Part shown: positions 21,126 through 38,560 of the stretch, one piece after another | Position numbering within the stretch: the stretch's first letter is position 1 | How the letters are laid out: each line of letters begins with the position of its first letter | Origin: Campylobacterota bacterium | Lineage (GTDB): Bacteria > Campylobacterota > Campylobacteria > Campylobacterales > Thiovulaceae | Reading direction: 5' to 3' | Length of the DNA stretch: 64,000 nt | Assembly: GCA_030152305.1 (NCBI GenBank) | Contig: JASKOM010000010.1 | Location: forward strand, 10,797-74,796 | Position numbers and translations under genes: made by a program | Notes under the pieces: generated by a model | What the model was told of the DNA's origin: nothing | Databases searched by the model: none | What the model saw: only the letters and a program-made list of their open reading frames with translations

Positions 21126-21179
21126 TATTCCTCCTTTCGTTAATTTATCAAATCAAATTTTAACATGACAAAAAACGGA

Positions 21180-21653
21180 TTATCTTTTAAAATCTCCATT
21201 TTTGCCACCGCTTTTTTCTTCTAATCGAATATCAGAAATTATCATGCTTTTATCAACGGCTTTTACCATGTCATAAATAGTTAATAAACCAATTGAAACA
21301 CCTGTTAAAGCTTCCATTTCAACTCCAGTTTTACCAGAAACTTTAACGGTAACAAATAATTTGAATTCGAAGTTTGCGATATTTTCTTCGATTTCGCAAT
21401 TGATTCCTGATAATAAAAGTGGATGGCACATCGGAATTAAATTTGAAGTTTGTTTTGCTCCCATAATCGAAGCAACAACGGCAGTTTGAAGAACTGGACC
21501 TTTTTTACCAGTTTCATTTAATACAGTTTCAAAAGCAAGACGAGACATTTTGATTTTGCCACTTGCAATTGCTGTTCGTGTTGTTATATCTTTATCGGAA
21601 ACATCAACCATTTTTGGTCTATTAAAATCATCTAAATGTGAAAGTTCGTTCAT
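21180..21653 (-). CDS. moaC: Cyclic pyranopterin monophosphate synthase accessory protein
   Basis: 157 aa with [21 protein letters not shown] and [14 protein letters not shown] motifs. Confidence 0.9.
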
Positions 21654-21667
21654 ATTTATTTTTGCCT

Positions 21668-21841
21668 TTATAAAATATCTGGAGCATGTGGTGGAAATTC
21701 TGAACTATCAGTTGTTGGAACAGGATGAGGAACAGTTGTTGGATTTTGAACGACATTATCATGTGTAATATTAGTTTCGACATCTCCGCAAGATATAAAA
21801 AATAGCGAAATTACCGCTAAAAAAGAAAACCTCATCGACAT
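21668..21841 (-). CDS. Small (57 aa) putative lipoprotein, below the ORF-track length cutoff
   Basis: Manual translation gives [57 protein letters not shown]. There is a signal peptide plus lipobox. The start lies 2 nt after the upstream gene's stop. Confidence 0.4.
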
Positions 21842-21842
21842 A

Positions 21843-24392
21843 TTATTTAACCCTTATGCTAGAAATTTTGCCATTATTTAAAAATACAAGATGTGTTTTG
21901 CCATCTGATTCGTTAAAAAATAGCGATCGTTGATCAGTTGAAGCTCTTGAAATTGTTCCCAAAGAAGAAAAACCGTTTGTTTGGCTATTTTTTGCAACTG
22001 TAAAATTGCCATCAATATTATATAAATATAAGCCCGTTTGAGTTGTTAAATTTGTCGCTCCACCTTCAGAATAAATTGGTAATGCGAGAATTCCGTTTGA
22101 AGTATCATAAGCTAAAGCTTCGATATTTAAAAAGCTATGAGTTTTATTATAATAATCGCCAAAGACTTTTTGATATTTTTTTGCTGGTTTTGTTAAATCT
22201 TTCATGTCAAATAATTGAAATTTAATTCCACCTGCACTTCCACTTTCTTCGATATATCTGCCAACAGAAAATAATTTATTATCAGCTGACGAATATTTAA
22301 TTAATTCGCTATCAACTCCTAAATCGATAATTCCACTTTTTTTTGGGGCTGTTTGACTTGATAAATCTAAGATTTGAAAACCTCGATTATTGCTATTTGG
22401 TGAAGCAATTGCCAATTTGCCATAAAACTTAATGCCACTTAACGAATAAAGCGATTCGACAAGTTCACCGACTTTTCCGACGGTTGCCATTTCACTATTT
22501 TCTTCGTTTAGAACATATAAAGCTCCGCTGTTTTCTTTTTCATCATTTTTAACATCAAACGAATAACCGTTTCGAGATGCAACTCGTAAATAGCCGTCTA
22601 ATTCGTCAAGCCAAAATTTATTATCGATTTCGCCGTCGATATATCCAGTTGCTCGATATTCGATCATTGGAAAAAATGAAAGTTTATGAACTTCAGATCT
22701 TTTTTTGGTCTCTTGAAACGATAAATGATGAGGTGCAGATTCGCCTGAAAAATATAAACTGTTTTTGCCAAATGATAAATTTTTATATTCACCAAATATC
22801 GATTCAGTTCGAGATAATTTTCCGCTAACTGTGTCAATTTGTGCAATTGTCGTAATTGACGAATTAACATCTAATTTTGATGAAGCTAAAAATCGGCTTG
22901 GATCGATTAAATCGATAAAATTTACTGTTCCACCAATTTGATATTTTGGAAGCGAATAGCTATTTTTTATCGATGGATTTTCATAGTTATATCTAAATAG
23001 TTTTTTTGTCGCCGTGTCTTTTTCGACATCGTAACATTTGATTCTGTAATCATTTGAATCTTCAGGATAATTACATGGATCGCTATTTGAAACCCATTCT
23101 TTTGGATATGTTATTTCGATACATGGCTGAAAAGTTGAAACTAAATATAACGACGAATCAATCATTCGAGCTTCAACGGCTGAACCGTCAATAAATACAT
23201 GTTTTTCATTTGAAAAACCGATTGGTTGTGAATTAATATCATAAACCGAAATTGCTGTTTTATTTGCTCGACATTGATTAGCAAACGAACTATTCGAATC
23301 GAAATCATTTAAATCAGAAATTACGATTAATTTATTTCCAGCTGTGAAAAACTCACGAATCGACGAAGTTCCTTTTGCAAAACTTATCGAAAAAGCCATT
23401 GGTGTTTTATTTTGACTATAAAGCATGTCATCAACGGCAATTGCACTTATGCTTTGATTACCGCTTTTATAATAAATAATTCTATTTTTTTCTTTTAATA
23501 AATTTGCCTGTTCAACACCTGTATATTTTGATGGCAAACCAGTTTGATTAACGATACTATTTGAAATATTGCTAGTTTGTGAAGTTGAGCTTGAACTTGT
23601 TGATGATGAAGTTAAATTAGAAGCTGTGTAATCATCTATGACTTCGGTCCAGTTCCAATATTTTTTTTCTCGATTGCCAACTAATGAAGCCTTTTTTATA
23701 TAAGTTTCAACTTCAGAAATCGTTTTGAAAGTTCCAATTGTTTCAGAAATTGCATCAGCTTTATATGTCGATAATTTTCCACCAACCATTGATAAATCGA
23801 TTTCTCGATCTTCAGGTGAATAAACCCAATAGCCATCTTTACTATTTACCTCATCGACTTCAGGAAAAGATAAAACTTCATATTTTTGATTTGTTTGCCA
23901 GTTACTATTTAATGAATTGTATCTCCATAATTTATAACCGTCAAATAATTTTTGTGAATAAACTGCATCAAAAGGCAATGAAATTAAATTCCAGCCTTTA
24001 TATAATTTGATATTAGAAATATCTAACGATGAGGTAGTTGGTGTTTCGGTTTCATCGATAATTAAACTCCAATCAACTTTGCTATAAACCCATAAACCTT
24101 GCCATCGTTCAATAAAATAAATAGGATCGAGTCGTCGTTCTTCGATGTTTGTTTTTAGCTCTTTTTCAGGGGAATAGCCTTCCCATTTAGCTGTTTTACC
24201 ATTGTAATACCAGACAAGACGAACATTATCGTTATTAAAAGCTTCAGAAGCTCTAATATCAGTTGGAAGACCTATTAATTGCCAACCAGATTTTAATTTT
24301 AATTGAAACTCAACCGCTTCGAGTTCATTAAAAATCATGACAGAAGAAAATATAGATATTTTTAAAAATTTAAAAATGCGAAATAGAGACAT
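21843..24392 (-). CDS. Secreted protein with two N-terminal GWxLIxLP...GYWV modules and a C-terminal beta-propeller domain (COG4880-like)
   Basis: Signal peptide. The modules are SGWQLIGLP...GLWVYS and KGWNLISLP...GYWVYS. There is a Ser-rich linker. The C-terminal pattern (LYSLSGIKFYGKLAIAS...FQILDLSSQTAPKKSGIIDL) resembles the Beta_propel family. Confidence 0.55.
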   Translation of the reverse strand: MSLFRIFKFLKISIFSSVMIFNELEAVEFQLKLKSGWQLIGLPTDIRASEAFNNDNVRLVWYYNGKTAKWEGYSPEKELKTNIEERRLDPIYFIERWQGLWVYSKVDWSLIIDETETPTTSSLDISNIKLYKGWNLISLPFDAVYSQKLFDGYKLWRYNSLNSNWQTNQKYEVLSFPEVDEVNSKDGYWVYSPEDREIDLSMVGGKLSTYKADAISETIGTFKTISEVETYIKKASLVGNREKKYWNWTEVIDDYTASNLTSSSTSSSSTSQTSNISNSIVNQTGLPSKYTGVEQANLLKEKNRIIYYKSGNQSISAIAVDDMLYSQNKTPMAFSISFAKGTSSIREFFTAGNKLIVISDLNDFDSNSSFANQCRANKTAISVYDINSQPIGFSNEKHVFIDGSAVEARMIDSSLYLVSTFQPCIEITYPKEWVSNSDPCNYPEDSNDYRIKCYDVEKDTATKKLFRYNYENPSIKNSYSLPKYQIGGTVNFIDLIDPSRFLASSKLDVNSSITTIAQIDTVSGKLSRTESIFGEYKNLSFGKNSLYFSGESAPHHLSFQETKKRSEVHKLSFFPMIEYRATGYIDGEIDNKFWLDELDGYLRVASRNGYSFDVKNDEKENSGALYVLNEENSEMATVGKVGELVESLYSLSGIKFYGKLAIASPNSNNRGFQILDLSSQTAPKKSGIIDLGVDSELIKYSSADNKLFSVGRYIEESGSAGGIKFQLFDMKDLTKPAKKYQKVFGDYYNKTHSFLNIEALAYDTSNGILALPIYSEGGATNLTTQTGLYLYNIDGNFTVAKNSQTNGFSSLGTISRASTDQRSLFFNESDGKTHLVFLNNGKISSIRVK

Positions 24393-24460
24393 AGATTTTG
24401 ACCTTAAAGTCGAGATTTTTAAATAACGATCGCCTATATAACAATATTTTTTTAATATTA

Positions 24461-25156
24461 TTAAAGTTGAAAATTTTTTAAAATAGGAGAACCGAAAGAA
24501 TCAAAAGAGACAATATATAAATTATCAACTAATATTTTTTCGTTGAGAAGATATTTTAAACCTAAATTAGCTTGAAACGATGCAATATTCATAACTATTG
24601 GAGTTGAAACACCGCGAGGAGTCTGTTGCAAATTTTTTAATATATTAAAATTGCCATTTTTAATTAAAGCAAAATGACCATAAAAAGCCTCAACGGCTCC
24701 ATAAACCCACGGAATATTTTTACTTTTTGAAAAATTATCGATTTCTAATCTGCTATTAAAATTATCAGTTGCATCAAAAATTAAATCTAATTTTTCAGAT
24801 TCGTCGATCATATTTTTTATAAAATCGTTAAAACTGCCAACAAACGGAATGATTTCCGAAAAAGGCGATCTATTTTTTTGTCGTTCAGCTCCAATAATTG
24901 CTTTTAAATTATCAACATCATTTATAAAAAAAGATATTTGTCTATGAATATTATGAACAGCAATATAATCAAAATCGATAATAAAAATTTTGCCAATTCC
25001 AATTGAACCGAGAGCATATGCGAGTGAGCTTCCAAGCCCACCAGCTCCAACAATTGCGATTTTTTTATCTTGAAGACTTTTTTGTTTTTCAAGCCCCCAA
25101 AGATCGATCTGTCGTTTAAAATAAACTTCAAAATCGATATTTGTTATTTCGCTCAT
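24461..25156 (-). CDS. ThiF/MoeB/HesA-family E1-like adenylyltransferase
   Basis: 231 aa with the Rossmann loop IVGAGGLGS. It overlaps the upstream epimerase gene by 4 nt. Confidence 0.8.
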   Translation of the reverse strand: MSEITNIDFEVYFKRQIDLWGLEKQKSLQDKKIAIVGAGGLGSSLAYALGSIGIGKIFIIDFDYIAVHNIHRQISFFINDVDNLKAIIGAERQKNRSPFSEIIPFVGSFNDFIKNMIDESEKLDLIFDATDNFNSRLEIDNFSKSKNIPWVYGAVEAFYGHFALIKNGNFNILKNLQQTPRGVSTPIVMNIASFQANLGLKYLLNEKILVDNLYIVSFDSFGSPILKNFQL

Positions 25157-26079
25157 AATTTTAAAATACCAGTTTTAAACTCTGTGAAATTATCAAAATT
25201 TAATAAATTAATAATTTTCGAATTATCAGCTCGAGATTCTCGAATGTCGCCATTTCTAGCTTTTACAAAATTTGGCTCTAAATTTATATTATATTTATTT
25301 TTTATAATATTAAATAAATCTAAAATTGTCGTTGTTTTTCCAGTTCCAACTGCAAAAATTTCACCTGCAACATTTTTATTTAACATCGATAAAATATTAA
25401 TTTGAGCTACATCTTTGACATAAACAAAATCGCGATTTTGCAAACCGTCGCCATAAATATTTGCTGTTTCGCCTCGTTTTAATCGATCTTCAAAAATCGA
25501 AATAACACCAGAATATTCACTTGATGGATCTTGTCGTTCGCCATAAACATTAAAATATCTTAACGAAACAGTTTCTAGTCCATATAATTTATTATAAATA
25601 TTCATATAATATTCGCCAATTAATTTTTCGTAACCATATGGCGAAATCGGGGCTGTTTTCGAATTTTCATTTTTTGGCAAATTTGGTTCGTCGCCATAAA
25701 CGGCTGCACTGCTAGAAAAAACAACTCGTTTTATATTATATTTTTTTGAAAGTTCCAAAATATACAAAGTTCCAAGAACATTTACAGAATTAGAAAAAAC
25801 TGGATCTTCAATCGATTTTTGAACTGATGCAACCGCCGCCAAATGAAAAACATAATCAGGCTTTTCTTCGGCAAAAATTATTTCTAATTTATCAAAATCG
25901 CGAATATCAACAGCATAAAAAACAAAATTATCTTTCGATAAATTATTTAATAATTCGATATTTGATCTTGAACTGCTATAAAAATTATCAATTCCGATTA
26001 CTTTTTCGCCGTTTTTTAATAATTCTTCAGCTATATGCGAACCGATAAAACCAGCAACACCAGTAATTAAAAATTTCAT
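25153..26079 (-). CDS. NAD-dependent sugar-nucleotide epimerase (GalE-like)
   Basis: GVAGFIGSH Rossmann motif, SSSAAVYG, and catalytic YGYEK (YxxxK). Confidence 0.85.
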   Translation of the reverse strand: MKFLITGVAGFIGSHIAEELLKNGEKVIGIDNFYSSSRSNIELLNNLSKDNFVFYAVDIRDFDKLEIIFAEEKPDYVFHLAAVASVQKSIEDPVFSNSVNVLGTLYILELSKKYNIKRVVFSSSAAVYGDEPNLPKNENSKTAPISPYGYEKLIGEYYMNIYNKLYGLETVSLRYFNVYGERQDPSSEYSGVISIFEDRLKRGETANIYGDGLQNRDFVYVKDVAQINILSMLNKNVAGEIFAVGTGKTTTILDLFNIIKNKYNINLEPNFVKARNGDIRESRADNSKIINLLNFDNFTEFKTGILKL

Positions 26080-26082
26080 TTT

Positions 26083-26511
26083 TTAAATTCCTGTGCTTCC
26101 AAAACCGCTGATTCCTCTTGCAGTTTCTGAAAGTTCCGCGACCTCATCGAATTGAACTAATTCAACTTTATTAATTACACCTTGAGCGATTCGTTCGCCA
26201 ATAGCAATATAAAAATCATTTTTGCCATGATTAATTAAAATTACTTTTAATTCGCCTCGATAATCGCTATCAACAGTTCCTGGACTATTTAAAACGGTAA
26301 TCGAATGTTTCAGTGCCAAACCGCTTCGAGGTCGAACTTGCAATTCATAACCTTTTGGAAGTTCAATCGACAAACCAGTTGAAACAAGAGCAGATTCACC
26401 ACTTCGAATAACTAAATCTTGGACAGACGAAAAATCAAAACCAACTGAACCGTCAGTTTGATAATTTGGAATTTTTGCATTTTCATGCAATTTTTTAATT
26501 TTTATTTTCAT
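26083..26511 (-). CDS. dut: dUTP diphosphatase
   Basis: GSVGFD, RPRSGLALKH, GTVDSDYRGE and RGISGFGSTG motifs. Confidence 0.9.
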   Translation of the reverse strand: MKIKIKKLHENAKIPNYQTDGSVGFDFSSVQDLVIRSGESALVSTGLSIELPKGYELQVRPRSGLALKHSITVLNSPGTVDSDYRGELKVILINHGKNDFYIAIGERIAQGVINKVELVQFDEVAELSETARGISGFGSTGI

Positions 26512-26996
26512 GCAAACATCTCTTTCACATATTTAATTTTTATAACTTCGAATTCCCGTGTGCCTTTTGAACCTTTAATTTCAAAGGTTTCACCAACTTT
26601 TTTACCAATAGCAAAACTTGCAATCGGCGAATGATAAGAAATAATATTCCGCGAACTATCAGCTTCATAGCTACTAACAATCGTATAAATTTCTTCAACT
26701 TCTGTATCTACATCAACAATAGTAAAAGTTGTGCCAAAACTGACTCGAGATAAATCAACTTTTGAAGGTTCGATAATTTGTGATTTAACTAACAAAGCAT
26801 TAAGTTCAGCGATTTGTTTATCGATCATTCGTTGTCTTTCACGAGCGGCATGATATTCAGCATTTTCTTTTAAATCGCCGTGTTCTCGTGCTTTTTCGAC
26901 TTCATTCATAACTTTTGGTCTTTCAACTGAAATTAATTCTCGTATTTCTTTTGATAACCGTTCAAAACCTGCTGGTGTTAAAAACTCTTTTTCCAT
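26508..26996 (-). CDS. greA: Transcription elongation factor GreA
   Basis: 162 aa. N-terminal coiled coil with GDLKENAEYHAAR, plus a C-terminal FKBP-like domain. Confidence 0.95.
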   Translation of the reverse strand: MEKEFLTPAGFERLSKEIRELISVERPKVMNEVEKAREHGDLKENAEYHAARERQRMIDKQIAELNALLVKSQIIEPSKVDLSRVSFGTTFTIVDVDTEVEEIYTIVSSYEADSSRNIISYHSPIASFAIGKKVGETFEIKGSKGTREFEVIKIKYVKEMFA

Positions 26997-27243
26997 AAAT
27001 AAAATATTCCTTTAAATTTTTTCGTATATCTAATTATTTATTTTAACACATGAAAAATAAAGATAATAAAGATTAACGATAACGATGAGGTAAGTTACAT
27101 AAAAAATAAAATTATTGTTGCTATTGTGTAAATAAGTAAGTTACCTTATCGTCGATTAAACGATAAGGCTTTTGAGATTTTTGAGAATATTTGTTATTTT
27201 GTAGTCCAAAAATTAGACAAATTAATGTAATAGAGTTTGAATT

Positions 27244-28800
27244 TTATTGAGCTTGTTTAACCCACATTCCAGCACCAGCAGGAATAAGTTCAGTTCCAAC
27301 ATTATCAGATGTATTTAAATCATGGATCCATGAGCCTGTTCGATTTGTATCAGTGTTTATTTTCCAGTGATAAATATCTACATTTGTCGATGAGGTTTTA
27401 TTTAAATCATCGTATTTATATTTACCAGCTGATTTATCTGTTGCAACAGAAGTTGTAATATTTATATCTTTTCCTGTGCTATTTCCGAGAATAACCCATT
27501 GATTAGCTACGGGCAAGTTTCTAACAATATCCGCAAAATCTGAAGTGTTAATTTTAGTAGAACCACCATCATTATCTGTTCCGTTGTAATCTGAAGCCAT
27601 TACATCATATAAAGTATTATTTGCATAACTGTTTGTTTTTATCCAATAACCTCTACCAGCTGTCATTTTTTCAGGATTTGCATTCCAGTTATAACCAGAA
27701 TTGTATTCCCAACCCCAAATTACTTTAGCTTTGTTGATTTTAAAAATCTCATTTGCATTTGTGGATTTGCCATTTGGAAGAGCAATTAAGTTCCACATGT
27801 TATTAACGACGGATACATTTTTATCACTTGAATTTGTTCCAAGTTGTGTTAAAAGCGGAAAACCATTACTTCGATAAAAAACATTTGAATTACTTCCAGA
27901 TATATTTACTTTTGCTGAACTGTTAAATTCAACGGAACTATCGATATTATAAATAGCATATTTGCCAAAAGTTGAATTATATTCGAGGGAATATTCGTTT
28001 AATGTTAATGTGCCAAATGTAAGATTTTGATCAGAAGTTCGAGAGTCATTCGAATTAACAGTTTCATTTAAATCAACTAAAATAATTGAACTATTTGAAT
28101 CCCAAATAAAATTTAGTGAATTAGCGGAGTCACTTAATTCTAAACTTGAATAAGATCCATTAAGATCATAAGTTGTGTTATTTTCTTTAATTGATAAATT
28201 CATGTCAGGAATACCATCACTTGGTATAGTTTCATTTATATCATATAAACATATAGTTCCAATACTACTATTATAGTCAATACTATAATTTTTTTCAGCA
28301 CTGCTAACATAAGCAACTATCGTTAAATTATCATCATTTATTGATAAATTACATTCAAATGTAACATTAAAATCTATCAACAAAGTTTTATTTGTTTCTG
28401 TGTCAATATAAACATTTATGCCGTTGTTTGTTGAATTAGTTATTGAATAGCTTCCGTCAAGATATTTATCTTTTGCAATAAATAATCTTAAGTCGTTGCG
28501 AGTGTTATCTCGAATAGTTGAAACATTTGCTTCACCAATTGTGTAATAATTTGTGTTTCCGCTATTTGAACTATAATAAATCGAAGCATTATTATCTGTT
28601 GAATTATTATCAATTGTGAAATTAGCATCAGCAGTTGCATTTTTCCAAGTTGAACTTAAAGATGAAACATTAAAATCTATTTTGATTTTTGCATATGTTT
28701 CTAAGTCAAGCGAAGCATTTAAATCAGTGTTTGAATAAAGATTATTTGTCAAAGCAAAAACTGTTGCAATTGACAATCTAGCTATTTTTTCTATTTTCAT
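27244..28800 (-). CDS. Secreted Asn-rich surface protein, extremely dense in D/E-X-N-X-S/T sequons, with C-terminal GWxLIxLP...GYW modules
   Basis: 518 aa with a signal peptide. I count 27 extended bacterial N-glycosylation sequons by hand. The C-terminus has MWNLIALP...GRGYWIKT and AGAGMWVKQ. Confidence 0.7.
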   Translation of the reverse strand: MKIEKIARLSIATVFALTNNLYSNTDLNASLDLETYAKIKIDFNVSSLSSTWKNATADANFTIDNNSTDNNASIYYSSNSGNTNYYTIGEANVSTIRDNTRNDLRLFIAKDKYLDGSYSITNSTNNGINVYIDTETNKTLLIDFNVTFECNLSINDDNLTIVAYVSSAEKNYSIDYNSSIGTICLYDINETIPSDGIPDMNLSIKENNTTYDLNGSYSSLELSDSANSLNFIWDSNSSIILVDLNETVNSNDSRTSDQNLTFGTLTLNEYSLEYNSTFGKYAIYNIDSSVEFNSSAKVNISGSNSNVFYRSNGFPLLTQLGTNSSDKNVSVVNNMWNLIALPNGKSTNANEIFKINKAKVIWGWEYNSGYNWNANPEKMTAGRGYWIKTNSYANNTLYDVMASDYNGTDNDGGSTKINTSDFADIVRNLPVANQWVILGNSTGKDINITTSVATDKSAGKYKYDDLNKTSSTNVDIYHWKINTDTNRTGSWIHDLNTSDNVGTELIPAGAGMWVKQAQ

Positions 28801-28834
28801 ATTTTCAAATTTTCCGATCTGAATTAATTAAAAA

Positions 28835-28863
28835 AGCCTCACAAAAAATTAATTATGAGGCTT
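28835..28863 (-). terminator. Rho-independent terminator after the 1465-aa gene
   Basis: AAGCCTCA / TGAGGCTT stem. On the minus strand it is followed by TTTTT. Confidence 0.6.
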
Positions 28864-28875
28864 GTGAGAGTTTTC

Positions 28876-31800
28876 TTATTTCTTTTTCTCGATAGTTTGG
28901 TTAAGTTCGTTTGTTGTTAAATAATTTGTTAATACAAAACATTCTGAAGAATCATACAAATCATCAAATGTAGTTTTGTATAACTTTGAATGATTTATAT
29001 CGATTAAAAGAGTTTTTTTATCTCCTACAAATTCGCTTTTTGCAAATTGAATTGTTGCTAAATAAGATGGATTACAGTTTGTGTCTAACGAAAGTTTTCT
29101 TATAACAGGAATATCGCTTGAAACTGATGAGGTCGAAACAGTGTCATAGGCAATTCTAATATACGAGTGATCATATGAACTATTATTATCGTGTGTAAGA
29201 ATTACTCCGTTATCATTTGTAGCACTTGTTGAATATTTACAACTTGAATTATAAATATATGGCTTATTGTCATAAGTATTATTTGTTTCATTAACTTCTA
29301 AAACTGAAGCATTTTTATAAATTGAAAACCAATCTGGAATAAAAGCAATATCAGAAGCTCTAAAATTAGAACCCATTTCTGGATTTCCATCAACTGCAAC
29401 AACTCGCCAATCGCTATTATTTGTATCAAAATCTGGAGCATCAGCACAAATGTTATAAAGCATAAATTTTAAAGTTGTGTTATTGTCGCTATGATCTATT
29501 TCTGTTCCGATTTTGTCATATTGGTAATCTACCGTTGTATTCCTATCTTCATTGTTTGAAGTTGTTGAACTTGACCAATATGTAACATTTAAGTCAATAT
29601 TACAAGCCTTAGATGTATTTTGATCTACCGTAGTTGTTGAACTTGAAACAAACCACCAACCTTGATAACAAATTAGATATTTGCTGGTAGGGTCATTCGT
29701 CGTTACTGTTGTAGAAGCTCCATCTATATACCATCTTAAATTTGCATAAGTAATATTAACTTCTTTATGAGTTAAGTTATTTTCAATAGAAAAATTATAG
29801 TCTTCGTAATTAGTATTGATATTTGCTAATAAAGCCTTTGAAACTATATTCATTGGATATAATTTATTTAAACTATCAGAAAAAGCAAAAGACCAAGCAC
29901 TTTCCTTTTGATCTTGAGTTGTAGCGGAACTATATATACTATAATTTAAAAAAGTAATACCTTGATATAAATTCATACCAATTGTTTTTGGAGAACTTGG
30001 AGTTACTGTTCTTATATAAAACTCATCTACACTGTTGCCATAATAGCCATCGCAACTTCCAACACAAGTTTTATAGTCGTTACTTGCTGTTAAATATTTC
30101 ACCCAATTATTATTAGATGGATCTGTTGCAATTCGATCATCAATTCCAGATTTGTAAATATTAAAACCTGTTATATCGTTAGAGGCTGAACCAATAAATA
30201 AAGTTTTGCCATCAAAAAATTCTAAAACTGGTTTTGCAGGTGGCAAAATATCAAATTCGACCTCATCGCTACCACTATTTCCAAATTCGTCATAAGCTTT
30301 AACTGTAATATTTTGATCATCGAGATTTATATTTTGCAAATCATCTTGATTAAAATTTAATGTATAAAACGAACCACTTCCGATCATTCGATATTCTTTA
30401 CCATGTATATTTGCCGTTACAGTTGTTGATTCCTCGTTATTACTATTTGAAACAGTTGCCGAAAGAGATGCATTAAATAAATTATCAACTGCTCCAGCTG
30501 TTGCGAAATTGCCGTTTGTTTCATTGTTGTTATAGTGTTGAATAAATTCAAGTCCAATTGAGGCATCAACTTTTATATCTGATTTTGTTTGTTGAGCAAT
30601 TCTGACGAAATAGCCATTTTCAATTTCAGTTGAGAAAAGATTATAATCAAAGCTTTCACTAAGCCATTCATCAGCTGGAACTGTTAAATCTAAATATCTC
30701 CAACTTACGGAACTTCCACTATTAACGGCTGTTAATATCGATTTTGCTAAATAGCCATTTTCTCGCATTAAATATAAAACTCCGTCGCTAGTTGGATAAT
30801 CTGGTGTATATATTGGCATATATGTTAAATCATCTGTTAAAGTTTTGACATTTTGCAATGCTACACCGCCAGAGGAATTTATTTCAGTAACATCTGATGA
30901 AAGTAACGAGCTATTTAAGTCAAAAGATAAAAAATAACCCGAAACTGTTAATTTGTCTTTATAGCTATCTTCATCATAACTACAATTTACATAAGCACTT
31001 GGAATTGAAGTATTGTTATTAACAGCTAAAGCAAAAGTTGAACAATCTGTTGATGTTTTTACAAATACACCATCTAATGAAATATTAAAATCTAAAGAAC
31101 CTGCACCAAAAGGATTAGATGGGAAAGCTTTTGGATACTCTAAACTAACAACACTTTTACTTATATCAGCTTTTGCAAGATCATCAATTGAATAAACTTT
31201 TGTTACAGAACCTAAAGCTAATGGATCGCTTGAATAAACTTTTGTAAATATATTCCCAGTTCCGTCTTCTTTTATATCAAAGTTTCGATAATCTGGATTT
31301 ATCGTCGTAACAAAAATTGAAGTGTTGATTTCTGAATTTGTAGAGCTATTTGCATCAAAATCAGTTAGAGCATTATTAATCGCTGTTAAAACTGTTTTTG
31401 TTTCGTTCGAATCACCACTTAAAGTTAAAGAAATTGATGTTTCCGTCGAGTCATCGCCTTTATCAAAATAGACTGTTCTATTCGCTTTTTCATCGATTCT
31501 ATAAACTTTTGTAAAAGTGTTATCTAGCACATAAAACGGCGAACTTCCAACAATTAAAATTGAATCGTTTTGATCATTTAAATCAAGATCTAAAATCGTA
31601 GCTTTGTAATTTGAACCTAAAGCTGTTGTTACTTGCGATAACAAACTTTTAATTCTATTTCCTGAAACAGTTAAATTAAAACTTGTGTCATTAACCGACA
31701 TTTTGCCTTTATTTGTATATGCTGAATGAAGCGAACCACTAACATTGCCTTCACCGTCGTTATTAACTGTAACAACTAAACCGTATTCACCGTATTTTGA

Positions 31801-33273
31801 CGAAACAATAGAAGTTGTTAAATTTGAAGATATGGACACTTTATTTATTGTCCAAACTTTACTAATAACATCATCTGTTGCACTTGAACTATTTAAATCA
31901 GCAATTTTAAATCTTTTGTCAGATAAAAGAGTTACATTTCCGTCGCCACTAGAAAAAGCCCGAATATTAAAACTTTTGGAAACATTACCTTCATCGATTG
32001 CTCTTGCAATTGCCATATTTGTTGATTTCGCAAATTCAGTCGCATTGACATCTGTATTTCCATTTGCTGAATATAATCTAACAAAAACTTTCTCTTTTTC
32101 AAGTTCGTCATAAATCGTATATTCAGCTTTTCCAGATGATGAAATTGTGTTTATTTCTAAAATTAAACCTGTTGGCGAATGACGAATATATCCGTCAGGA
32201 AATGAAAGCATTCTCCAACCGTCCGAACCACTTAAAAGAGAATGACCAGATTGACGAGAAGTTTTATAAGTTCCGTTTGAGTTTTGAGCATTTCCGCCTA
32301 AATTAGATTTGTCTGATAAAATTGTTGAGTTTCCGTATAAATCGCTATTTATCCAGCCATCGCCAAATACAAAACCTTTATTTGAACCGTTTCGTTCTGA
32401 ACTTGTCGAAGAAAAATAGACCCAATATCCGCTTCCTGCAACAAGTGAATCAAAGTCATTTGCCGAATCGCTAATATTCGAGAAAAAGCTTTCCCAACCG
32501 CTTAAACTTCCGTCAAGTCGAAATATTTTTAATTTATCATAACTGCTTAACTTAGAAATATTTGAACTATATGAAAAATCATAAATTTCTCCAGATTGCC
32601 CATCTTTACCTGTATTATCTGAAAGATTCATATCAAAAATATCTCTAATCTTGAAAGTGTATTTATCGCTTGTTGTTTTTATCGTTTTTAATACATATGG
32701 ATTTGCTGAACCGTATGCTGAATTAAAATAGCCATATAAATGTTGAGTTGTTCCACTGCTTTTTACAGTTTTTACATAAAACATTTCACCTTCGAGATCT
32801 GACTGATATGAAATATTTATATCCGATGAGGTAGCTAAACCAGTTGTTGAAAGATACATTTTTCTTCGTGGCAAATCAGGATCTAAAACTTTATTTCCTA
32901 ATTCAGCCGAAACTGTAACATTCATGTCTCCGTCAGTTGATGCTTTAGTGCTAACAATAAAACCGACCATATGTTTTGATGAATTATATTCATCTTGTAA
33001 AGCATTGCCATCAATACCCATAATTTTATTTGAATGCAATGAGTTATTCGTATCACTCCACCAATAACCTTGACCTGTTGTTTTTATTTCACCAGTTCCT
33101 GAACCTTCCATAAAAGCCCCTGGAACTCCAATTAATGTCCAAACACCAGTTGGAATATGAACTTCGACTAAATTATTAGCCAACATTGGAACCGTCAAAA
33201 GCGACAAAGCTCCAATTTTTAACGATAATTTCTTAGTCATCAAAGTTAAATACGACATCTTCGTTCTCCTCAA
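28876..33273 (-). CDS. Giant (about 1450 aa) secreted Asn/Ser/Thr-rich surface protein, dense in D/E-X-N-X-S/T sequons
   Basis: The signal peptide MTKKLSLKIGALSLLTVPMLA suggests a true start at 33240, overlapping the upstream stop as ATGACTAA. I count 32 extended sequons by hand. GVWTLIGVP...GYWW and GSGYWVYF modules are present. Confidence 0.75.
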   Translation of the reverse strand: MRRTKMSYLTLMTKKLSLKIGALSLLTVPMLANNLVEVHIPTGVWTLIGVPGAFMEGSGTGEIKTTGQGYWWSDTNNSLHSNKIMGIDGNALQDEYNSSKHMVGFIVSTKASTDGDMNVTVSAELGNKVLDPDLPRRKMYLSTTGLATSSDINISYQSDLEGEMFYVKTVKSSGTTQHLYGYFNSAYGSANPYVLKTIKTTSDKYTFKIRDIFDMNLSDNTGKDGQSGEIYDFSYSSNISKLSSYDKLKIFRLDGSLSGWESFFSNISDSANDFDSLVAGSGYWVYFSSTSSERNGSNKGFVFGDGWINSDLYGNSTILSDKSNLGGNAQNSNGTYKTSRQSGHSLLSGSDGWRMLSFPDGYIRHSPTGLILEINTISSSGKAEYTIYDELEKEKVFVRLYSANGNTDVNATEFAKSTNMAIARAIDEGNVSKSFNIRAFSSGDGNVTLLSDKRFKIADLNSSSATDDVISKVWTINKVSISSNLTTSIVSSKYGEYGLVVTVNNDGEGNVSGSLHSAYTNKGKMSVNDTSFNLTVSGNRIKSLLSQVTTALGSNYKATILDLDLNDQNDSILIVGSSPFYVLDNTFTKVYRIDEKANRTVYFDKGDDSTETSISLTLSGDSNETKTVLTAINNALTDFDANSSTNSEINTSIFVTTINPDYRNFDIKEDGTGNIFTKVYSSDPLALGSVTKVYSIDDLAKADISKSVVSLEYPKAFPSNPFGAGSLDFNISLDGVFVKTSTDCSTFALAVNNNTSIPSAYVNCSYDEDSYKDKLTVSGYFLSFDLNSSLLSSDVTEINSSGGVALQNVKTLTDDLTYMPIYTPDYPTSDGVLYLMRENGYLAKSILTAVNSGSSVSWRYLDLTVPADEWLSESFDYNLFSTEIENGYFVRIAQQTKSDIKVDASIGLEFIQHYNNNETNGNFATAGAVDNLFNASLSATVSNSNNEESTTVTANIHGKEYRMIGSGSFYTLNFNQDDLQNINLDDQNITVKAYDEFGNSGSDEVEFDILPPAKPVLEFFDGKTLFIGSASNDITGFNIYKSGIDDRIATDPSNNNWVKYLTASNDYKTCVGSCDGYYGNSVDEFYIRTVTPSSPKTIGMNLYQGITFLNYSIYSSATTQDQKESAWSFAFSDSLNKLYPMNIVSKALLANINTNYEDYNFSIENNLTHKEVNITYANLRWYIDGASTTVTTNDPTSKYLICYQGWWFVSSSTTTVDQNTSKACNIDLNVTYWSSSTTSNNEDRNTTVDYQYDKIGTEIDHSDNNTTLKFMLYNICADAPDFDTNNSDWRVVAVDGNPEMGSNFRASDIAFIPDWFSIYKNASVLEVNETNNTYDNKPYIYNSSCKYSTSATNDNGVILTHDNNSSYDHSYIRIAYDTVSTSSVSSDIPVIRKLSLDTNCNPSYLATIQFAKSEFVGDKKTLLIDINHSKLYKTTFDDLYDSSECFVLTNYLTTNELNQTIEKKK

Positions 33274-33913
33274 CTTTATCTAAATAATAATCATAAACAT
33301 TCGTATATATTTCTGGTTTCTCGACATGAAATATTTTCTCGACATCAGAATCAAGAAACGAATAAATTAAATCTGGAATAATCGGTGTTGCAATATATTG
33401 AACAACATCAAATCTATTTTCGATTGACCTCATCGCACATTGAACTCTCAAACCAGTTTCAACACTTTCATCAACGAAAACAACATTTTTTATATTTTTT
33501 TCGATATTTAATAAATTATCAGAATTTCGTTCTTTTTGTAATTTAGGCATTAATTTATAATTAAAAATTACATCAATGGCTTTATCAAGAATATGTTTAT
33601 CGATTTGAAAAAAATCTCGAAGAACTTCATCAACGACTATATCTTTAAATTCGCTGATCATTGCAATTTTGCAATCGACATTTAATTGACAATATACCGA
33701 TTCGATATAAAATCGTTCCCAGCGAATATTTAATTTTTCAGATAGACCTTTTGCGATAATATCACCATTATCAGAAATCGATAACAAAAGCCATTCATCA
33801 CGATTAATATCTTTTGGAAAAACTTCTGATAATTTATATATTGCATCATTTATATTTTTAAACGGTTTCATATGTCTTAACATTTTAAAATACACTCCCC
33901 ATGCTTCCAGCAA
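33233..33913 (-). CDS. Phosphoribosyltransferase-like protein (COG1926-type)
   Basis: PRPP-loop-like motif NVVFVDESVETGLRV with an upstream ...DIVVDEVL... layout. The true start is probably an internal Met (MLRHMKPF). Confidence 0.45.
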   Translation of the reverse strand: MLEAWGVYFKMLRHMKPFKNINDAIYKLSEVFPKDINRDEWLLLSISDNGDIIAKGLSEKLNIRWERFYIESVYCQLNVDCKIAMISEFKDIVVDEVLRDFFQIDKHILDKAIDVIFNYKLMPKLQKERNSDNLLNIEKNIKNVVFVDESVETGLRVQCAMRSIENRFDVVQYIATPIIPDLIYSFLDSDVEKIFHVEKPEIYTNVYDYYLDKVEENEDVVFNFDD

Positions 33914-35282
33914 GAATTTTTAAATCATTATCAATAAAATAGAATCCAAGACCAAAACTTAAACTTCGATCATCGTTTAATAAATTTGTAGCACCTGTGT
34001 ATAAATCGATATGATCATAAATACGATATCGGAAAAGAGTTCTTAAATTTGCATATTTATTTCTCAAATCATTAACGGCATTAAAATCAAACACTTCGCC
34101 ACTAATTCGCCATTTATCACCAGCTCCAAAATATTCTGCTCCAAATCCGCCAGTGCTTTCGATTAAACCAGCTCGAAAAAGCCAATTGCCATATTTTTTT
34201 CCATATTGCAACGAAAATAAAGTTTTACCTTCGTCGTGTAATTTATAATTATTCACATTGCCATTTTCGTTAATTTCACTGTAATCAGGCGAAGAAACAA
34301 GACTTAATAAATAATAAGTTTCTGGATTTGGCAAATATGAAATAGATGTAGTTGTTGAGATCGTTTTATCTCTTAAATTATATTCGCCACGGCTTGAAAG
34401 CTGAATTTGTGATTCTGTAATTGACGATAAAATCTTGTCAAGTTTTTTAATCGATTCTTCACCTTTTGTGAAAAAATCACCAAAAGAATTTAAACTTTTA
34501 TTTAATGGCTGTCTATTTTCTGCAACTGTTTCATTTAATTCAGAAACAAGAGATTTAACAGAAGTTAATATTTCAGGAAGTTCATTATCAAGAGTTGTGC
34601 CGACACTTTTATATTTTTCGAGAGTTTGTTCAAACGAACGAATAACTTCAGGCAATCGAGCTGAAAAAATAGCAAAATTTTCAGAAGTTTTTTCGAAACC
34701 TTTAACAGTATTTTTAACACCAAGTCGATTTTCTCGAACTATTTCACGAATATCTTTTAATAAAAGAGCAATATCAGAAATAGCATTTTTTATTTCATTT
34801 CGACTATCTTCATTTAAAGTCGCTCGAACTTCTTGAGCTAATTTTTTAAATTCTTCGGAGGCTTGATAAATGCTATCGCTAGTTTTTTCAAAAGAAGCAA
34901 GAGTTTTATAATTATTTAATGATTCACCGTTTGCTAAATTTTTATCGCTTTTACCTCGAAATATCGAAATAATTTTGCCACCTAAAAGCGATTCTTGAGA
35001 TAAATAAATTTCTGAATCATTAGGAACTTCATAGCCATTATCGATTAATAAATTTAAAACGACTTTATCACCAGATAACGAAAAACTTTCAAGCCGACCG
35101 ATATTTATACCGTTCATTTTGACTCGCGAATTTACTTCTAAGCCTGTTGAATCGTCAACAACAGCTCGAACACGATAGCCTTCAGCTCCCATGTTTTTAA
35201 ATTCACTTACTTGTGTCGTTAAAACAAAAAGCATTCCAACTATTAAAACGACAAAAAACCCAACTTTAGCCTCGAGGCTCAT
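33885..35282 (-). CDS. MlaD/MCE-domain protein with a long helical region and a beta-rich C-terminus
   Basis: N-terminal TM helix (VGFFVVLIVGMLFVL). The MCE domain is GYRVRAVVDDSTGLEVNSRVKMNGINIGRLESFSL, followed by a coiled-coil segment. Confidence 0.7.
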   Translation of the reverse strand: MSLEAKVGFFVVLIVGMLFVLTTQVSEFKNMGAEGYRVRAVVDDSTGLEVNSRVKMNGINIGRLESFSLSGDKVVLNLLIDNGYEVPNDSEIYLSQESLLGGKIISIFRGKSDKNLANGESLNNYKTLASFEKTSDSIYQASEEFKKLAQEVRATLNEDSRNEIKNAISDIALLLKDIREIVRENRLGVKNTVKGFEKTSENFAIFSARLPEVIRSFEQTLEKYKSVGTTLDNELPEILTSVKSLVSELNETVAENRQPLNKSLNSFGDFFTKGEESIKKLDKILSSITESQIQLSSRGEYNLRDKTISTTTSISYLPNPETYYLLSLVSSPDYSEINENGNVNNYKLHDEGKTLFSLQYGKKYGNWLFRAGLIESTGGFGAEYFGAGDKWRISGEVFDFNAVNDLRNKYANLRTLFRYRIYDHIDLYTGATNLLNDDRSLSFGLGFYFIDNDLKILAGSMGSVF

Positions 35283-35419
35283 ACTAAAACCTTTTTTTAC
35301 AATTTTAACAAAAAGATATATATTTAACTTAAGTTTTTTAATTAAAGTTAATTTTGGTAAATTTACGATTATTGAACCAAACTTGATAATATAAAAAATA
35401 GATTGGAAAATTAATTAAC

Positions 35420-35887
35420 ATGAAAAAAATAGCATTTATGTCAATAATTTCATTGGCAACATCGTCTGCATTGTTTTCGTTTAACTTCGATGAAAATCAT
35501 CTTGACGAAATAAATAAAAAGTTCGGCATTTTCGCAAAATCATTATTTGATGGCAAAATTAATAATTATCCTGCAATGAATATTTATGAACGAGATTCTG
35601 ATTATTTAATCGAATTAGAAATTATCGGAATTAATCAAAATGATATGGAAGTTTCCATATCTGATAATCGTATTTTGTCTATCTCTGGAAATAAACCAGA
35701 TTTTAATCGAACAGATTCAAAAGTGCTTCGAGAAGAAAGATTTGTCGGTAAGTTTCAACGAGAAATCGTTTTGCCAAATGATATCGATAGTGCATCTATT
35801 GATGTAAAAAATGAAAACGGAATTCTAAAAATTACTGTTTTAAAAGATATTAAAAAAACTGGCAAAAGAGTTATTCCTATAAAATAA
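35420..35887 (+). CDS. Hsp20/alpha-crystallin small heat-shock protein (with a signal-like N-terminus)
   Basis: Alpha-crystallin domain: PAMNIYERDSDYLIELEIIGI...ISGNK...FVGKFQREIVLPNDID...NGILKITV. Confidence 0.75.
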   Translation: MKKIAFMSIISLATSSALFSFNFDENHLDEINKKFGIFAKSLFDGKINNYPAMNIYERDSDYLIELEIIGINQNDMEVSISDNRILSISGNKPDFNRTDSKVLREERFVGKFQREIVLPNDIDSASIDVKNENGILKITVLKDIKKTGKRVIPIK

Positions 35888-35893
35888 TATATT

Positions 35894-35925
35894 CACAAAT
35901 AAAAAAATCATTTTTTTTATTTGTG
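35894..35925 (+). terminator. AT-rich hairpin terminator after the hsp20 gene
   Basis: CACAAATAAAAAAA-tca-TTTTTTTTATTTGTG followed by TTT. Confidence 0.4.
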
Positions 35926-36010
35926 TTTCTTAAGTCTATTTTGTTTATATGAGTTTTAAACTTTGTTTTTAGATAAAATAAGCAAAGAAAAATAAAGGGT
36001 TGGAGAATTC

Positions 36011-38560
36011 ATGAAAATTTTGCTTTACAATCAAAATCCTGTTGTTGAAAGGCTGGTTGTTTTAAGTGCCAAAAAAAGTGGGGATAAAGTTATCAATACA
36101 AGAAGTCTTGACGAACTTATTCCAGAAGAAGTAGATTTACTTTTAATCGATGATGATGTTTTTATCATTGATGAAAATTCTTTTAATGTAATTAAAAGTA
36201 AAATAAAATTTAAAAAAAGCTGTTTAATTATTTCACGAAATAGTCATGTTTCAAAAAATGATTTTGATGATACTTTACAAAAACCTTTTTTACCAACAGA
36301 TTTAGTTGCAGAATTAGAAAAAATGAAAAAAGCTTCTGAAGAAGCTAAAGTTCCAGAAGAAAGTCCTATCGATGGGCTTGATTTTGACAGTTTAAGTAAA
36401 ATTGATTCTATTGAAAAAAATAATCAATCACAAATTACAGAAGAATTAAATTTAGATGGACTTCTCGGAGATTATGATTCTGATAATGACAATAGCCAAA
36501 ATATAAATTCTGGTCATTTAGATAATGATGATAATATTAAGTTGTCATTAGATGATTTAGATTTAGACAAAGATATAACACCATTATCACATATAACAGA
36601 AAATAATTCTTTGAAAAATAATGTTCCTCAAGAACAAGTTTTGTCAAAAACAAATGATCAAGATTTAGAATTAGATTTAGCTTTAAAAGAGTTAGAAACA
36701 GATGATCTTAAAAAATCAACTTCCGAATCAGTCGTTACCTCATCGACAGTTTTAAATTCTATAACAACAAAAGATAATCAAGAAATTTCACCTGTATCAA
36801 TTATTCAAGATGATGATTTCGAAGTTGACTTAGCTTTGCAAGAACTTGACGAAGAAACAAAACCAACTCAAACAGTTCAAGCTAAAAAAGTAGATTTATC
36901 GATTGATGATGAATTAGATGATTTAGAAAAAGAGATGATTCAACTTAATAACGAAGACGAATTATTACTCGCTCCGAAAGTCGAAAATGTTCAAACTAAA
37001 AAAGATGAATTAGATGATTTAGAAAAAGAGATGATTCAACTTAATAACGAAGACGAATTATTACTCGCTCCGAAAGTCGAAAATGTTCAAACTAAAAAAG
37101 ATGAATTATCGATTGATGACGAATTAGATAATTTAGAAAAAGAACTTGCAAAGCTTGATTCAATTGAAAAAGAAAATGCTGATTTTGTTTCTAATATTCA
37201 AACTACTAAAGTCGCAACTAACGAAACTAAACAAGAAATGTCTTTTATTAATGATGATATTGATTTAAATATCAAAGATCTTGATAATGACGATGAAATT
37301 GAGTTAATTACTCCAGAAATCAAGATTGATATCGATGAAGTCGAAACTCCAAAAGTTGAAATCGTTGAAAAAATAGTCGAACCAAAACAAGAAGTCGAAA
37401 CTCCAAAAGTTGAAATCGTTGAAAAAATAGTCGAACCAAAACAAGAAGTCGAAACTCCAAAAGTTGAAATCGCTGAAAAAATAGTCGAAACAAAACAAGA
37501 AGTCGAAACTCCAAAAGTTGAAATCGCTGAAAAAATAGTCGAACCAAAACAAGAAATCGAAACTCCAAAAGTTGAAATCGCTGAAAAAATAGTCGAACCA
37601 AAACAAGAAATCGAAACTCCAAAAGTTGAAATCGCTGAAAAAATAGTCGAACCAAAACAAGAAGTCGAAACTCCAAAAGTTGAAATCGCTGAAAAAATAG
37701 TCGAACCAAAACAAGAAATCGAAACTCCAAAAGTTGAAATCGCTGAAAAAATAGTTGAATCAAAACAAGAAGTCGAAACTCCAAAAGTTGAAATCGCTGA
37801 AAAAATAGTTGAATCAAAACAAGAAGTTGAAACTCCAAAAGTTGAAATCGCTGAAAAAATAGTTGAATCAAAACAAGAAGTCGAAACTCCAAAAGTTGAA
37901 ATCGTTGAAAAAATAGTCGAACCAAAACAAGAAATCGAAACTCCAAAAGTTGAAATCGCTGAAAAAATAGTCGAACCAAAACAAGAAATAGAAAGTTCAG
38001 TTTCTCTTGAAACTGTTGGTGCAGTTGCTTTAGTTGGTGCAGGAATCGGTGCAATGGCTTTAATGTCTTCAAAAGAACAAAATGAAAAAGTTGAAATAAA
38101 AGAAATAAAATCAGAACCTAAACAGGAATATAAATTGAACTTAAAACCTAAAGATAGATTTGAAATTGATAAAGAAGCAGATTCTCTTGATAAAATTTCC
38201 GAAGTTTCAATTGGTAAAGCCGTCGGACAAATTATTGAAGAACCAGTTATCGAAACTCCAGTAATTGAAGAACCTGTTATCGTTAAAACTGAAGAATTAA
38301 AAAAAGTTGATGCAAAAATTGAAGAACAACAAACCGTTGAAATTCAATCTTTGTCATCGTTAGTCAAAGAAAGTGAGCACAAAATAGAACCAAAAATCGA
38401 ACATGAATCTAAGGTTCAAGAAATAAAAATCGAATCTGATAAAAAAGAGAGCGATCTTGAAACGATTATTGCTCTTTTAAAACAGCTTGATTCTGTTGGA
38501 CTTAAAAAAGTTTTAAGTGGAATGGAACTTAATATTTCTATAAAATTTAAGGAGATTTAA
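36011..38560 (+). CDS. Highly acidic poly-E/repeat protein with a pseudo-receiver N-terminus and one TM segment
   Basis: 849 aa. The N-terminus is CheY-like (DLLLIDDDV...LQKPFLPTDLV). It has long D/E-rich sequence, 12 tandem 18-aa repeats and the TM segment VGAVALVGAGIGAMALM. It sits directly upstream of gmk. Confidence 0.8.
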   Translation: MKILLYNQNPVVERLVVLSAKKSGDKVINTRSLDELIPEEVDLLLIDDDVFIIDENSFNVIKSKIKFKKSCLIISRNSHVSKNDFDDTLQKPFLPTDLVAELEKMKKASEEAKVPEESPIDGLDFDSLSKIDSIEKNNQSQITEELNLDGLLGDYDSDNDNSQNINSGHLDNDDNIKLSLDDLDLDKDITPLSHITENNSLKNNVPQEQVLSKTNDQDLELDLALKELETDDLKKSTSESVVTSSTVLNSITTKDNQEISPVSIIQDDDFEVDLALQELDEETKPTQTVQAKKVDLSIDDELDDLEKEMIQLNNEDELLLAPKVENVQTKKDELDDLEKEMIQLNNEDELLLAPKVENVQTKKDELSIDDELDNLEKELAKLDSIEKENADFVSNIQTTKVATNETKQEMSFINDDIDLNIKDLDNDDEIELITPEIKIDIDEVETPKVEIVEKIVEPKQEVETPKVEIVEKIVEPKQEVETPKVEIAEKIVETKQEVETPKVEIAEKIVEPKQEIETPKVEIAEKIVEPKQEIETPKVEIAEKIVEPKQEVETPKVEIAEKIVEPKQEIETPKVEIAEKIVESKQEVETPKVEIAEKIVESKQEVETPKVEIAEKIVESKQEVETPKVEIVEKIVEPKQEIETPKVEIAEKIVEPKQEIESSVSLETVGAVALVGAGIGAMALMSSKEQNEKVEIKEIKSEPKQEYKLNLKPKDRFEIDKEADSLDKISEVSIGKAVGQIIEEPVIETPVIEEPVIVKTEELKKVDAKIEEQQTVEIQSLSSLVKESEHKIEPKIEHESKVQEIKIESDKKESDLETIIALLKQLDSVGLKKVLSGMELNISIKFKEI
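36908..37099 (+). repeat. 2 x 96-nt tandem duplication (32 aa: DELDDLEKEMIQLNNEDELLLAPKVENVQTKK)
   Basis: Identical units start at 36908 and 37004, with a partial third unit after 37100. Confidence 0.85.
37337..37984 (+). repeat. 12 x 54-nt in-frame tandem repeat (18 aa: E[VI]ETPKVEI[AV]EKIVE[PST]KQ)
   Basis: Counted from the sequence and translation. Variant units occur in runs (V/I at residue 2, A/V at residue 10, P/S/T at residue 16). Confidence 0.95.

Follow-up and report, generated by a model that had tools for sequence, protein, structure and literature searches.

The known substrates of the bacterial oligosaccharyltransferase PglB carry few glycans, the glycoproteins of Campylobacter jejuni having one to a few sites each, and the purpose of general N-glycosylation in bacteria is debated. 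In C. jejuni, the acceptor sequence D/E-X1-N-X2-S/T is recognised by a periplasmic single-subunit transferase of the STT3 family (PMC6478998, PMC4894442), and the glycoproteome of this organism comprises 53 proteins (PMC6478998). The present analysis concerns two adjacent genes, called here A and B, whose products contain tens of copies of this acceptor motif. They are located on a 64,000-nucleotide stretch of DNA from a Campylobacterota bacterium of the Thiovulaceae (GenBank assembly GCA_030152305.1, contig JASKOM010000010.1, positions 10,797 to 74,796 of the forward strand), and this whole stretch is referred to below as the window. The reading favoured here, with a probability of about three in four, is that both proteins leave the cytoplasm by Sec and are N-glycosylated at multiple sites by a PglB enzyme, which leaves them clad in glycans.

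An excess of extended sequons in two adjacent genes

Gene A (27244..28800, minus strand) encodes a protein of 518 aa and gene B (28876..33258, minus strand) a protein of 1460 aa. A preliminary description of the window, made by inspection of the sequence, had listed two open reading frames (ORFs), and both were found where it put them, on the minus strand. The ORF of B, as originally listed, extends over 28876-33273 (1465 aa) and reaches a TTG at 33273; the start of B in public gene calls is the ATG at 33258, which gives 1460 aa. An extended sequon was defined as D/E-X-N-X-S/T, neither X being proline. With this definition, A contains 27 extended sequons and B contains 32, exactly the numbers obtained earlier by hand for the 518-aa and 1465-aa proteins. 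The acid at position -2 is present in 27/37 N-X-S/T tripeptides of A (73%) and in 32/50 of B (64%). The preliminary description had given 27 of 39, about two thirds, for A, where the 27 stands but the total does not, and about half for B, which is too low. On average, a site occurs every 19 residues in A and every 46 in B. No two of the 59 pentapeptides are alike, and Tandem Repeats Finder detected no repeat beneath the sequon sites of either gene, so that the sequon count does not reflect one unit copied repeatedly. The nucleotide sequence is itself confirmed by an independent public assembly: the Logan assembly SRR24719468_5658, from run SRR24719468, is 100% identical to positions 20553-36937 of the window, and the sequence of A and B is therefore no local assembly artefact. 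Public look-ups of A and of B returned this 16-kb Logan contig only.

The size of the excess was measured with 20,000 residue shuffles per protein, which keep the composition. For A, 27 sites are observed and the shuffles contain 1.75 on average (standard deviation 1.28, maximum 8); for B, 32 are observed and the shuffles contain 3.41 (standard deviation 1.82, maximum 15). Given the number of sequons and a D+E content of 11-12%, -2 acids as numerous as those observed have a binomial probability of about 1e-18 in each of the two proteins. The enrichment is thus far above the chance level set by D+E content, as had been proposed, and it persists in composition-matched shuffles, a comparison that had been named beforehand as a possible refutation. 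Plain N-X-S/T tripeptides are themselves found at about twice the expected number (37 versus 16.2 in A, 50 versus 29.6 in B).

The excess is also highly specific for one motif. In both proteins, the enrichment in D/E is confined to position -2 and is absent at -4, -3 and -1, and serine and threonine are used about equally at position +2. Once D/E-X-N is present, it is followed by X-S/T in 27/28 cases in A and 32/38 in B. Control motifs stay at background, with 0-6 matches, whether the acid is moved to -3 or -1, the motif is reversed, N is replaced by Q or D, or K/R is put at -2. When the 48 ORFs of the window are ranked by number of extended sequons, A and B are the sole outliers, the next counts being 5, 4 and 4.

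A related signal can be observed in the remaining proteins of the window. Outside A and B, the -2 acid is present at 22/78 N-X-S/T tripeptides of exported or membrane proteins versus 4/65 of cytoplasmic ones (Fisher p = 8e-4), a comparison that depends on a manual classification, both classes having been curated by hand. This curated list replaced an earlier automatic split, which misassigned A and the PhoX fusion described below and showed no signal. A -2 acid bias of exported over cytoplasmic proteins is what a genome with an active PglB-type system should be expected to look like. Additional sequons had been announced in three neighbouring secreted proteins; they are indeed present in the PhoX fusion (5) and in the beta-propeller protein (3), whereas the LRR protein was not borne out by Pfam in the ORFs tested.

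Sequon density is conserved while site positions turn over

Two relatives of A were detected, P0001 and ThvES_00015830 (Thiovulum sp. ES), which share its C-terminal 190 residues. B has eleven relatives, in a family that spans Thiovulum and related Campylobacterales. The closest of them, with 58% identity, belongs to Candidatus Thiovulum stygium strain Movile (CP091137.1 / GCA_021582295.1; Bizic et al. 2022, PMC9938260), and another, P0009, is encoded on DTUW01000176.1 of Thiovulum sp. Tui Malila and contains 30 extended sequons. A scan of a genome collection with the B alignment produced matches in Ca. T. stygium and in the Tui Malila metagenome-assembled genome only. Two genes lie directly upstream of B and form with it a conserved trio, described below; their products, an MlaD-like protein and a middle protein, are respectively 83% and 74% identical to their T. 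stygium counterparts, and the lower value of 58% indicates that B evolves faster than its neighbours. The window organism is closely related to Candidatus Thiovulum stygium and distinct from the six published Thiovulum genomes.

The sequon excess is a property of these families and not of A and B alone. Among the 12 other homologs of A or B, ten contain 11-47 extended sequons for 0.8-4 expected, and each of these ten exceeds the maximum of its own 2,000 shuffles; P0012 is the only homolog near the expected number. Nearly all members of the B family are sequon-rich (19-47 sites), the ortholog of Ca. T. stygium Movile reaching 47, and the B homolog is the lone sequon outlier in each of five other loci. 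The B family keeps this density while the positions of the sites turn over: of the 84 columns of a nine-sequence alignment in which an extended sequon is found, 3 are common to all nine sequences and 26 are singletons.

The -2 acid becomes more frequent as an N-X-S/T column is common to more sequences. At N-X-S/T columns present in at least seven sequences, the -2 acid is found in 87/98 instances, compared with 33% at singletons and with a D+E background of 13%. The flanks were compared with the asparagine itself in columns where at least three sequences have a sequon. When Asn is present, D/E occupies -2 in 92% of cases and S/T occupies +2 in 94%, two values inflated by the choice of columns; when Asn is absent, these proportions drop close to background, to 27% and 31%. 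This fall of both flanks without Asn may be taken as the informative part of the test.

Export and organisation of A and B

Both A and B start with a basic and hydrophobic leader, as judged from sequence inspection and a hydropathy scan. Throughout the B family, the sequence of this leader is variable, its last residue is always A or G, and the invariant residues NNLVE come next, a pattern typical of a signal-peptidase I site. In B itself, inspection of the sequence delineates the signal peptide MSYLTLMTKKLSLKIGALSLLTVPMLA (33178..33258, minus strand), immediately followed by this family-invariant mature N-terminus. On the basis of the N-terminal leaders and of the signal-peptidase I-like site, A and B are concluded to be proteins with predicted export through Sec. 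Neither a lipobox, a barrel nor a known secretion domain was found in them, and the label of surface proteins given in the preliminary description is not supported; nor is the term giant applied to A, a protein of 518 aa.

A is composed of two regions. The lineage-specific N-terminal region (residues 24-332; 27805..28731, minus strand) contains 22/27 sequons, about one per 15 residues, and the conserved C-terminal domain (residues 333-518; 27247..27804, minus strand) contains the other 5 together with the motifs W-N-L-I..P and G-x-G-Y-W. In B, the least conserved stretch of the family (residues ~1100-1265 of the ORF; 29479..29976, minus strand), with a column identity of 0.16-0.24, contains 7/32 sequons. 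Neither protein belongs to a Pfam family, profile searches of PDB sequences with the A and B alignments gave no match, and BLASTP detected no meaningful similarity between A and B. The AlphaFold2 model of A, built from a 3-sequence alignment, has a predicted local distance difference test score (pLDDT) of 33 and offers a strand-rich sketch of low confidence. That of B (residues 24-640, 9 sequences) has a pLDDT of 43, with one domain at 70-83, and a Foldseek comparison of this model with the PDB gave no match with E < 0.001. Outer domains of phage sheath and flagellin appeared among the weaker Foldseek matches and were set aside.

The oligosaccharyltransferase of the Thiovulum lineage

A PglB-type oligosaccharyltransferase is encoded in this lineage. 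An 'Oligosaccharyltransferase PglB' (K17251) is annotated in 6/6 Thiovulum genomes, several of which also have annotations for PglA, PglC and PglE (PMC9938260 supplements). On contig DTUW01000176.1 of Thiovulum sp. Tui Malila, a protein of 728 aa contains the STT3, STT3-PglB_core and STT3_PglB_C domains. Its gene is intact and divergent from the operon encoding the MlaD-like protein, a 198-aa protein and the B ortholog, at a distance of 98 bp. This vicinity of pglB and the trio was seen in Tui Malila only and not in the other five loci compared. On the same contig (887-6020 and 6118-12050), pglB also stands beside genes for a GT4-family glycosyltransferase, a 465-aa protein and a small lipoprotein.

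The Tui Malila PglB is 39% identical to PglB of C. lari, the sequence of which was checked against PDB 3RCE, and retains the C. lari residues D56, R147, D154, D156, E319, R331 and R375 as well as the WWDYG and MxxI motifs. A salt bridge between R331 and the acceptor's -2 Asp has been proposed (PMC4894442). When C. lari PglB was used as query in a homology search, no Thiovulum protein was found among the best 120 matches, which were all from Campylobacter; a search of a representative library gave 150 diverse PglBs among the matches listed. Transcripts of the B ortholog of T. stygium (CHBDMNKA_00367) are present in the Movile Cave metatranscriptome at 66 and 61 transcripts per million (TPM), and those of the two ORFs annotated as pglB in that organism at TPM 91-224. 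Of genes that might serve in oligosaccharide assembly, the window showed only those for GlmU, for a GalE-like epimerase (25153-26079) and for an ABC exporter of MsbA/PglK type (53509-55212), and not one of them is pathway-specific.

A model of dense N-glycosylation

The observations described above can be assembled into a simple model. A and B would be exported by Sec across the inner membrane, where a Campylobacter-type single-subunit PglB, encoded elsewhere in the genome, would act on the exported proteins. At many D/E-X-N-X-S/T sites, this enzyme would attach to the Asn, en bloc, an oligosaccharide preassembled on a lipid carrier. Selection would have packed these sites to the densities reported above, with one per 15 residues in the N-terminal two thirds of A, and the mature proteins would end up clad in N-glycans. 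Under this model the genome of the window organism would be expected to encode its own pglB, the predicted sites of A and B would be occupied by glycan, and the resulting coat might stabilise a protein of the envelope or the extracellular space, shield it from proteases or keep it hydrated. Among bacterial proteins so far predicted to be N-glycosylated by the PglB pathway, A and B probably have the highest density. The view, already expressed in the preliminary description, that these proteins are under selection for dense N-glycosylation is supported by the shuffles, by the specificity at -2 and +2, and by the density maintained in orthologs despite site turnover. It is also backed by the -2 acid kept at conserved sequons, by the decay of the flanks without Asn, and by the bias seen only in exported proteins.

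Several points nevertheless weigh against glycan-clad PglB substrates. PglB mainly modifies exposed and flexible segments, buried sites may stay empty, and the structure models are too poor for placing the sequons. No STT3/PglB gene is located within the 64-kb window. In Ca. T. stygium Movile, pglB is annotated as two adjacent ORFs (CHBDMNKA_00624/00625), both COG1287 and both transcribed, which could be due to a frameshift in a nanopore-based assembly or to a split or broken gene. This split annotation matters since the B ortholog of the same genome has 47 sequons. PglB homologs with relaxed -2 specificity also keep Arg331 (PMC4894442), so that the conserved R331 supports the -2 rule for the Thiovulum enzyme without proving it. 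Finally, the modest transcript level of the B ortholog argues against an abundant, dominant coat comparable to a surface layer (S-layer).

Thiovulum cells swim very fast, and they can tether themselves and build veils. In a more speculative extension of the model, which is unlikely on balance, the mucin-like, hyper-N-glycosylated proteins of the Thiovulum lineage, with up to 47 sequons per chain, would be structural parts of an undescribed envelope or extracellular apparatus. B would take part in it with its MCE partner and, together with A-like proteins, maybe in the glycoprotein matrix of the tether or veil. What the data show is B as an exported protein linked through gene order to an MCE-domain envelope protein.

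Alternative explanations

The alternative that survives best, with a small chance of being correct, accepts the sites as genuine PglB acceptor motifs but leaves most of them unoccupied in vivo, with few in use and the others tolerated as by-products or as a reserve, so that A and B would be ordinary glycoproteins and not heavily coated ones. The preference of PglB for flexible, exposed segments, which is general knowledge, and the strand-rich secondary-structure sketch of A are both in line with this possibility. Motifs without use would however be lost, whereas the conserved N-X-S/T columns keep their -2 acid in the proportion given above. Two further observations speak for sites in use, namely the decay of the flanks upon loss of Asn and the density upheld across orthologs in spite of site turnover.

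A second alternative dispenses with glycosylation altogether and assigns to the motif a structural or metal-binding part, for example that of an Asx/ST turn or of a DxDxDG-like Ca2+ loop, in a fold that is repetitive and rich in beta structure. D-x-N-x-S/T does resemble the first five positions of EF-hand/DxDxDG loops, and A and B appear beta-rich in the low-confidence models. The details of the motif make this explanation quite improbable. The A and B sites do not follow the EF-hand/DxDxDG rule (Gly at position 6, Asp at position 1, D/N/S at position 5): S/T is mostly followed by I, Y, L, V, K or D, with a predominance of hydrophobic residues and without enrichment in Gly, and Glu replaces Asp at -2 in 18/59 sites. 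D/E-X-N-X followed by a residue other than S/T is limited to 1 case in A and 6 in B. The site positions are not conserved, and the distance between sites varies without regularity from 3 to 189 residues. Moreover, unrelated exported proteins of the window show the same bias.

A third alternative keeps N-glycosylation and replaces PglB by another system, for example a cytoplasmic N-glycosyltransferase of the HMW1C type, which modifies adhesins. Indeed, HMW1-type adhesins are a known bacterial case of proteins with tens of N-linked sites (bioRxiv 10.1101/2020.09.10.281741). Enzymes of this class use plain N-X-S/T, which leaves the -2 acid unexplained; no GT41 or two-partner-secretion domain was found in A, B or their neighbours, and the lineage encodes PglB. 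There is accordingly little to recommend this possibility, which is equally hard to believe. Finally, an origin in composition alone, suggested by the residue content of A (15% Asn, 12% Ser, 9.5% Thr, 7.7% Asp) in an AT-rich genome (~30% G+C in the window), is ruled out by the composition-preserving shuffles and by the absence of enrichment of control motifs of equal composition.

A conserved trio with an MlaD/MCE-domain protein

Three genes form a conserved unit in which B comes last. The first encodes a membrane-anchored MlaD/MCE-domain protein of 465 aa (33885..35282, minus strand), the 83% identical counterpart of which in Ca. T. stygium was mentioned above. The middle gene (33233..33883, minus strand) encodes a protein of 216 aa without signal peptide, with a weak phosphoribosyltransferase-like similarity, and overlaps the start of B. 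Six loci were inspected: the window, Ca. T. stygium, Thiovulum sp. Tui Malila, two JGI metagenome contigs and one ENA metagenome contig. The order MlaD/MCE protein, cytoplasmic protein of about 200 aa, B is kept in 6/6, with different flanking genes, and the trio is grouped together in the Operon-mapper output of the published T. stygium annotation. This gene order suggests that B probably works with the MlaD/MCE envelope protein. No gene for an MlaE/MlaF-type permease or ATPase, for PqiA or for PqiC accompanies the trio in these loci.

The situation of A is different, since it adjoins B only in the window among the six loci. A terminator-like hairpin (28834..28863, minus strand), made of an 11-bp stem and then a T run, separates B from A, which is therefore probably transcribed as a unit of its own. 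The neighbours of the pair are greA, dut, the epimerase gene, the gene of the MlaD-like protein and that of HSP20, and a search with Rfam revealed no RNA gene in the window. The order greA, dut, GalE-like epimerase, thiF (24461-26996, minus strand), beside A, is the same as on contig k141_5959 of Ca. T. stygium strain Frasassi, on which a retron-type reverse transcriptase occupies the position of A.

Other proteins of the window

Three exported or membrane proteins of the window deserve mention for their sequons. The multihaem cytochrome c encoded at 10954-12264 (plus strand; Cytochrom_c3_2/C554/Paired_CXXCH) has the -2 acid at 4/5 N-X-S/T tripeptides (shuffle p = 0.0005) and is a likely further N-glycoprotein, as predicted from its sequons. 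The PhoX fusion (14108-17542, minus strand; 1144 aa), in which an alkaline phosphatase domain of the PhoX type is joined to a choice-of-anchor I domain, has 5 extended sequons for 19 N-X-S/T. A polytopic membrane protein of 701 aa (56723-58828, plus strand), weakly similar to MMPL/HAE3, has 4 for 9 (shuffle p = 0.0055). A useful cytoplasmic contrast is provided by a protein of 488 aa (41900-43366, plus strand) that matches the CRISPR-associated RAMP superfamily, with no cas neighbours in view: the -2 acid is present at 0/10 of its N-X-S/T tripeptides. Its gene also contains an internal 75-nt repeat of 2.3 copies (42140-42312).

Two additional genes are unusual for other reasons. A very acidic protein of 849 aa (36011-38560, plus strand), which belongs to no Pfam or NCBIfam family, contains 12.2 tandem copies of a 54-nt unit (18 aa, VETPKVEIAEKIVEPKQE, 97% matches; 37337-37994) and 2.1 copies of a 96-nt unit (36908-37108). 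One hydrophobic segment comes after the repeats, and the region has a strong AT skew (0.26). A lipoprotein-like protein of 626 aa (19245-21125, minus strand) combines caspase (Peptidase_C14), PEGA and Lcl C-terminal domains.

Significance and comparison with known systems

If the favoured reading is correct, a natural family in which selection has accumulated tens of acceptor sites would reveal the purpose of heavy N-glycan cladding in a free-living bacterium. It would also allow the acceptor rule followed by the transferase of an uncultured organism to be read cleanly from evolution, the -2 rule being visible in the substrates themselves. A and B would become candidate envelope or veil glycoproteins of Thiovulum, and their families would represent natural multi-sequon scaffolds for glycoengineering. 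Should the structural apparatus considered above exist, it would be the first case of bacterial en-bloc N-glycosylation building a glycan-dominated structural protein. In the literature outside subscription journals, no paper was found that links Thiovulum with PglB or describes such sequon-saturated substrates.

Three described systems share one feature or another with the locus and differ from it in the rest. The HMW1/HMW1C adhesins of Haemophilus influenzae and relatives are likewise large exported proteins with tens of Asn sites. In that system, however, a cytoplasmic GT41 enzyme adds single hexoses at plain N-X-S/T and the adhesin follows two-partner secretion, none of which is seen for A and B. 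The archaeal S-layer glycoproteins also carry many sequons, and their AglB, an STT3-family enzyme, acts after export. AglB nevertheless uses N-X-S/T without the -2 acid that characterises the A and B sites, and archaeal S-layer proteins dominate the cell surface, whereas the transcription of the B ortholog is only modest in situ. The MlaD/PqiB/LetB systems have in common with the trio a membrane-anchored MlaD-domain protein, encoded here upstream of B, but a giant glycoprotein partner is part of none of the described MCE systems.

The closest comparison remains the N-glycosylation of C. jejuni. Its PglB substrates, such as AcrA, PEB3, CgpA and CmeABC, are exported proteins that bear the same sequon and come from the same phylum as A and B, and the PglB of the Thiovulum lineage has the same catalytic and acceptor-binding residues as the Campylobacter enzyme. 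No known PglB substrate is similar to A or B in sequence, and these two proteins exceed the substrates of C. jejuni in the number of their sites, 27 in the 518 aa of A and up to 47 in the B orthologs, here predicted from sequence. The difference from Campylobacter N-glycosylation is one of degree.

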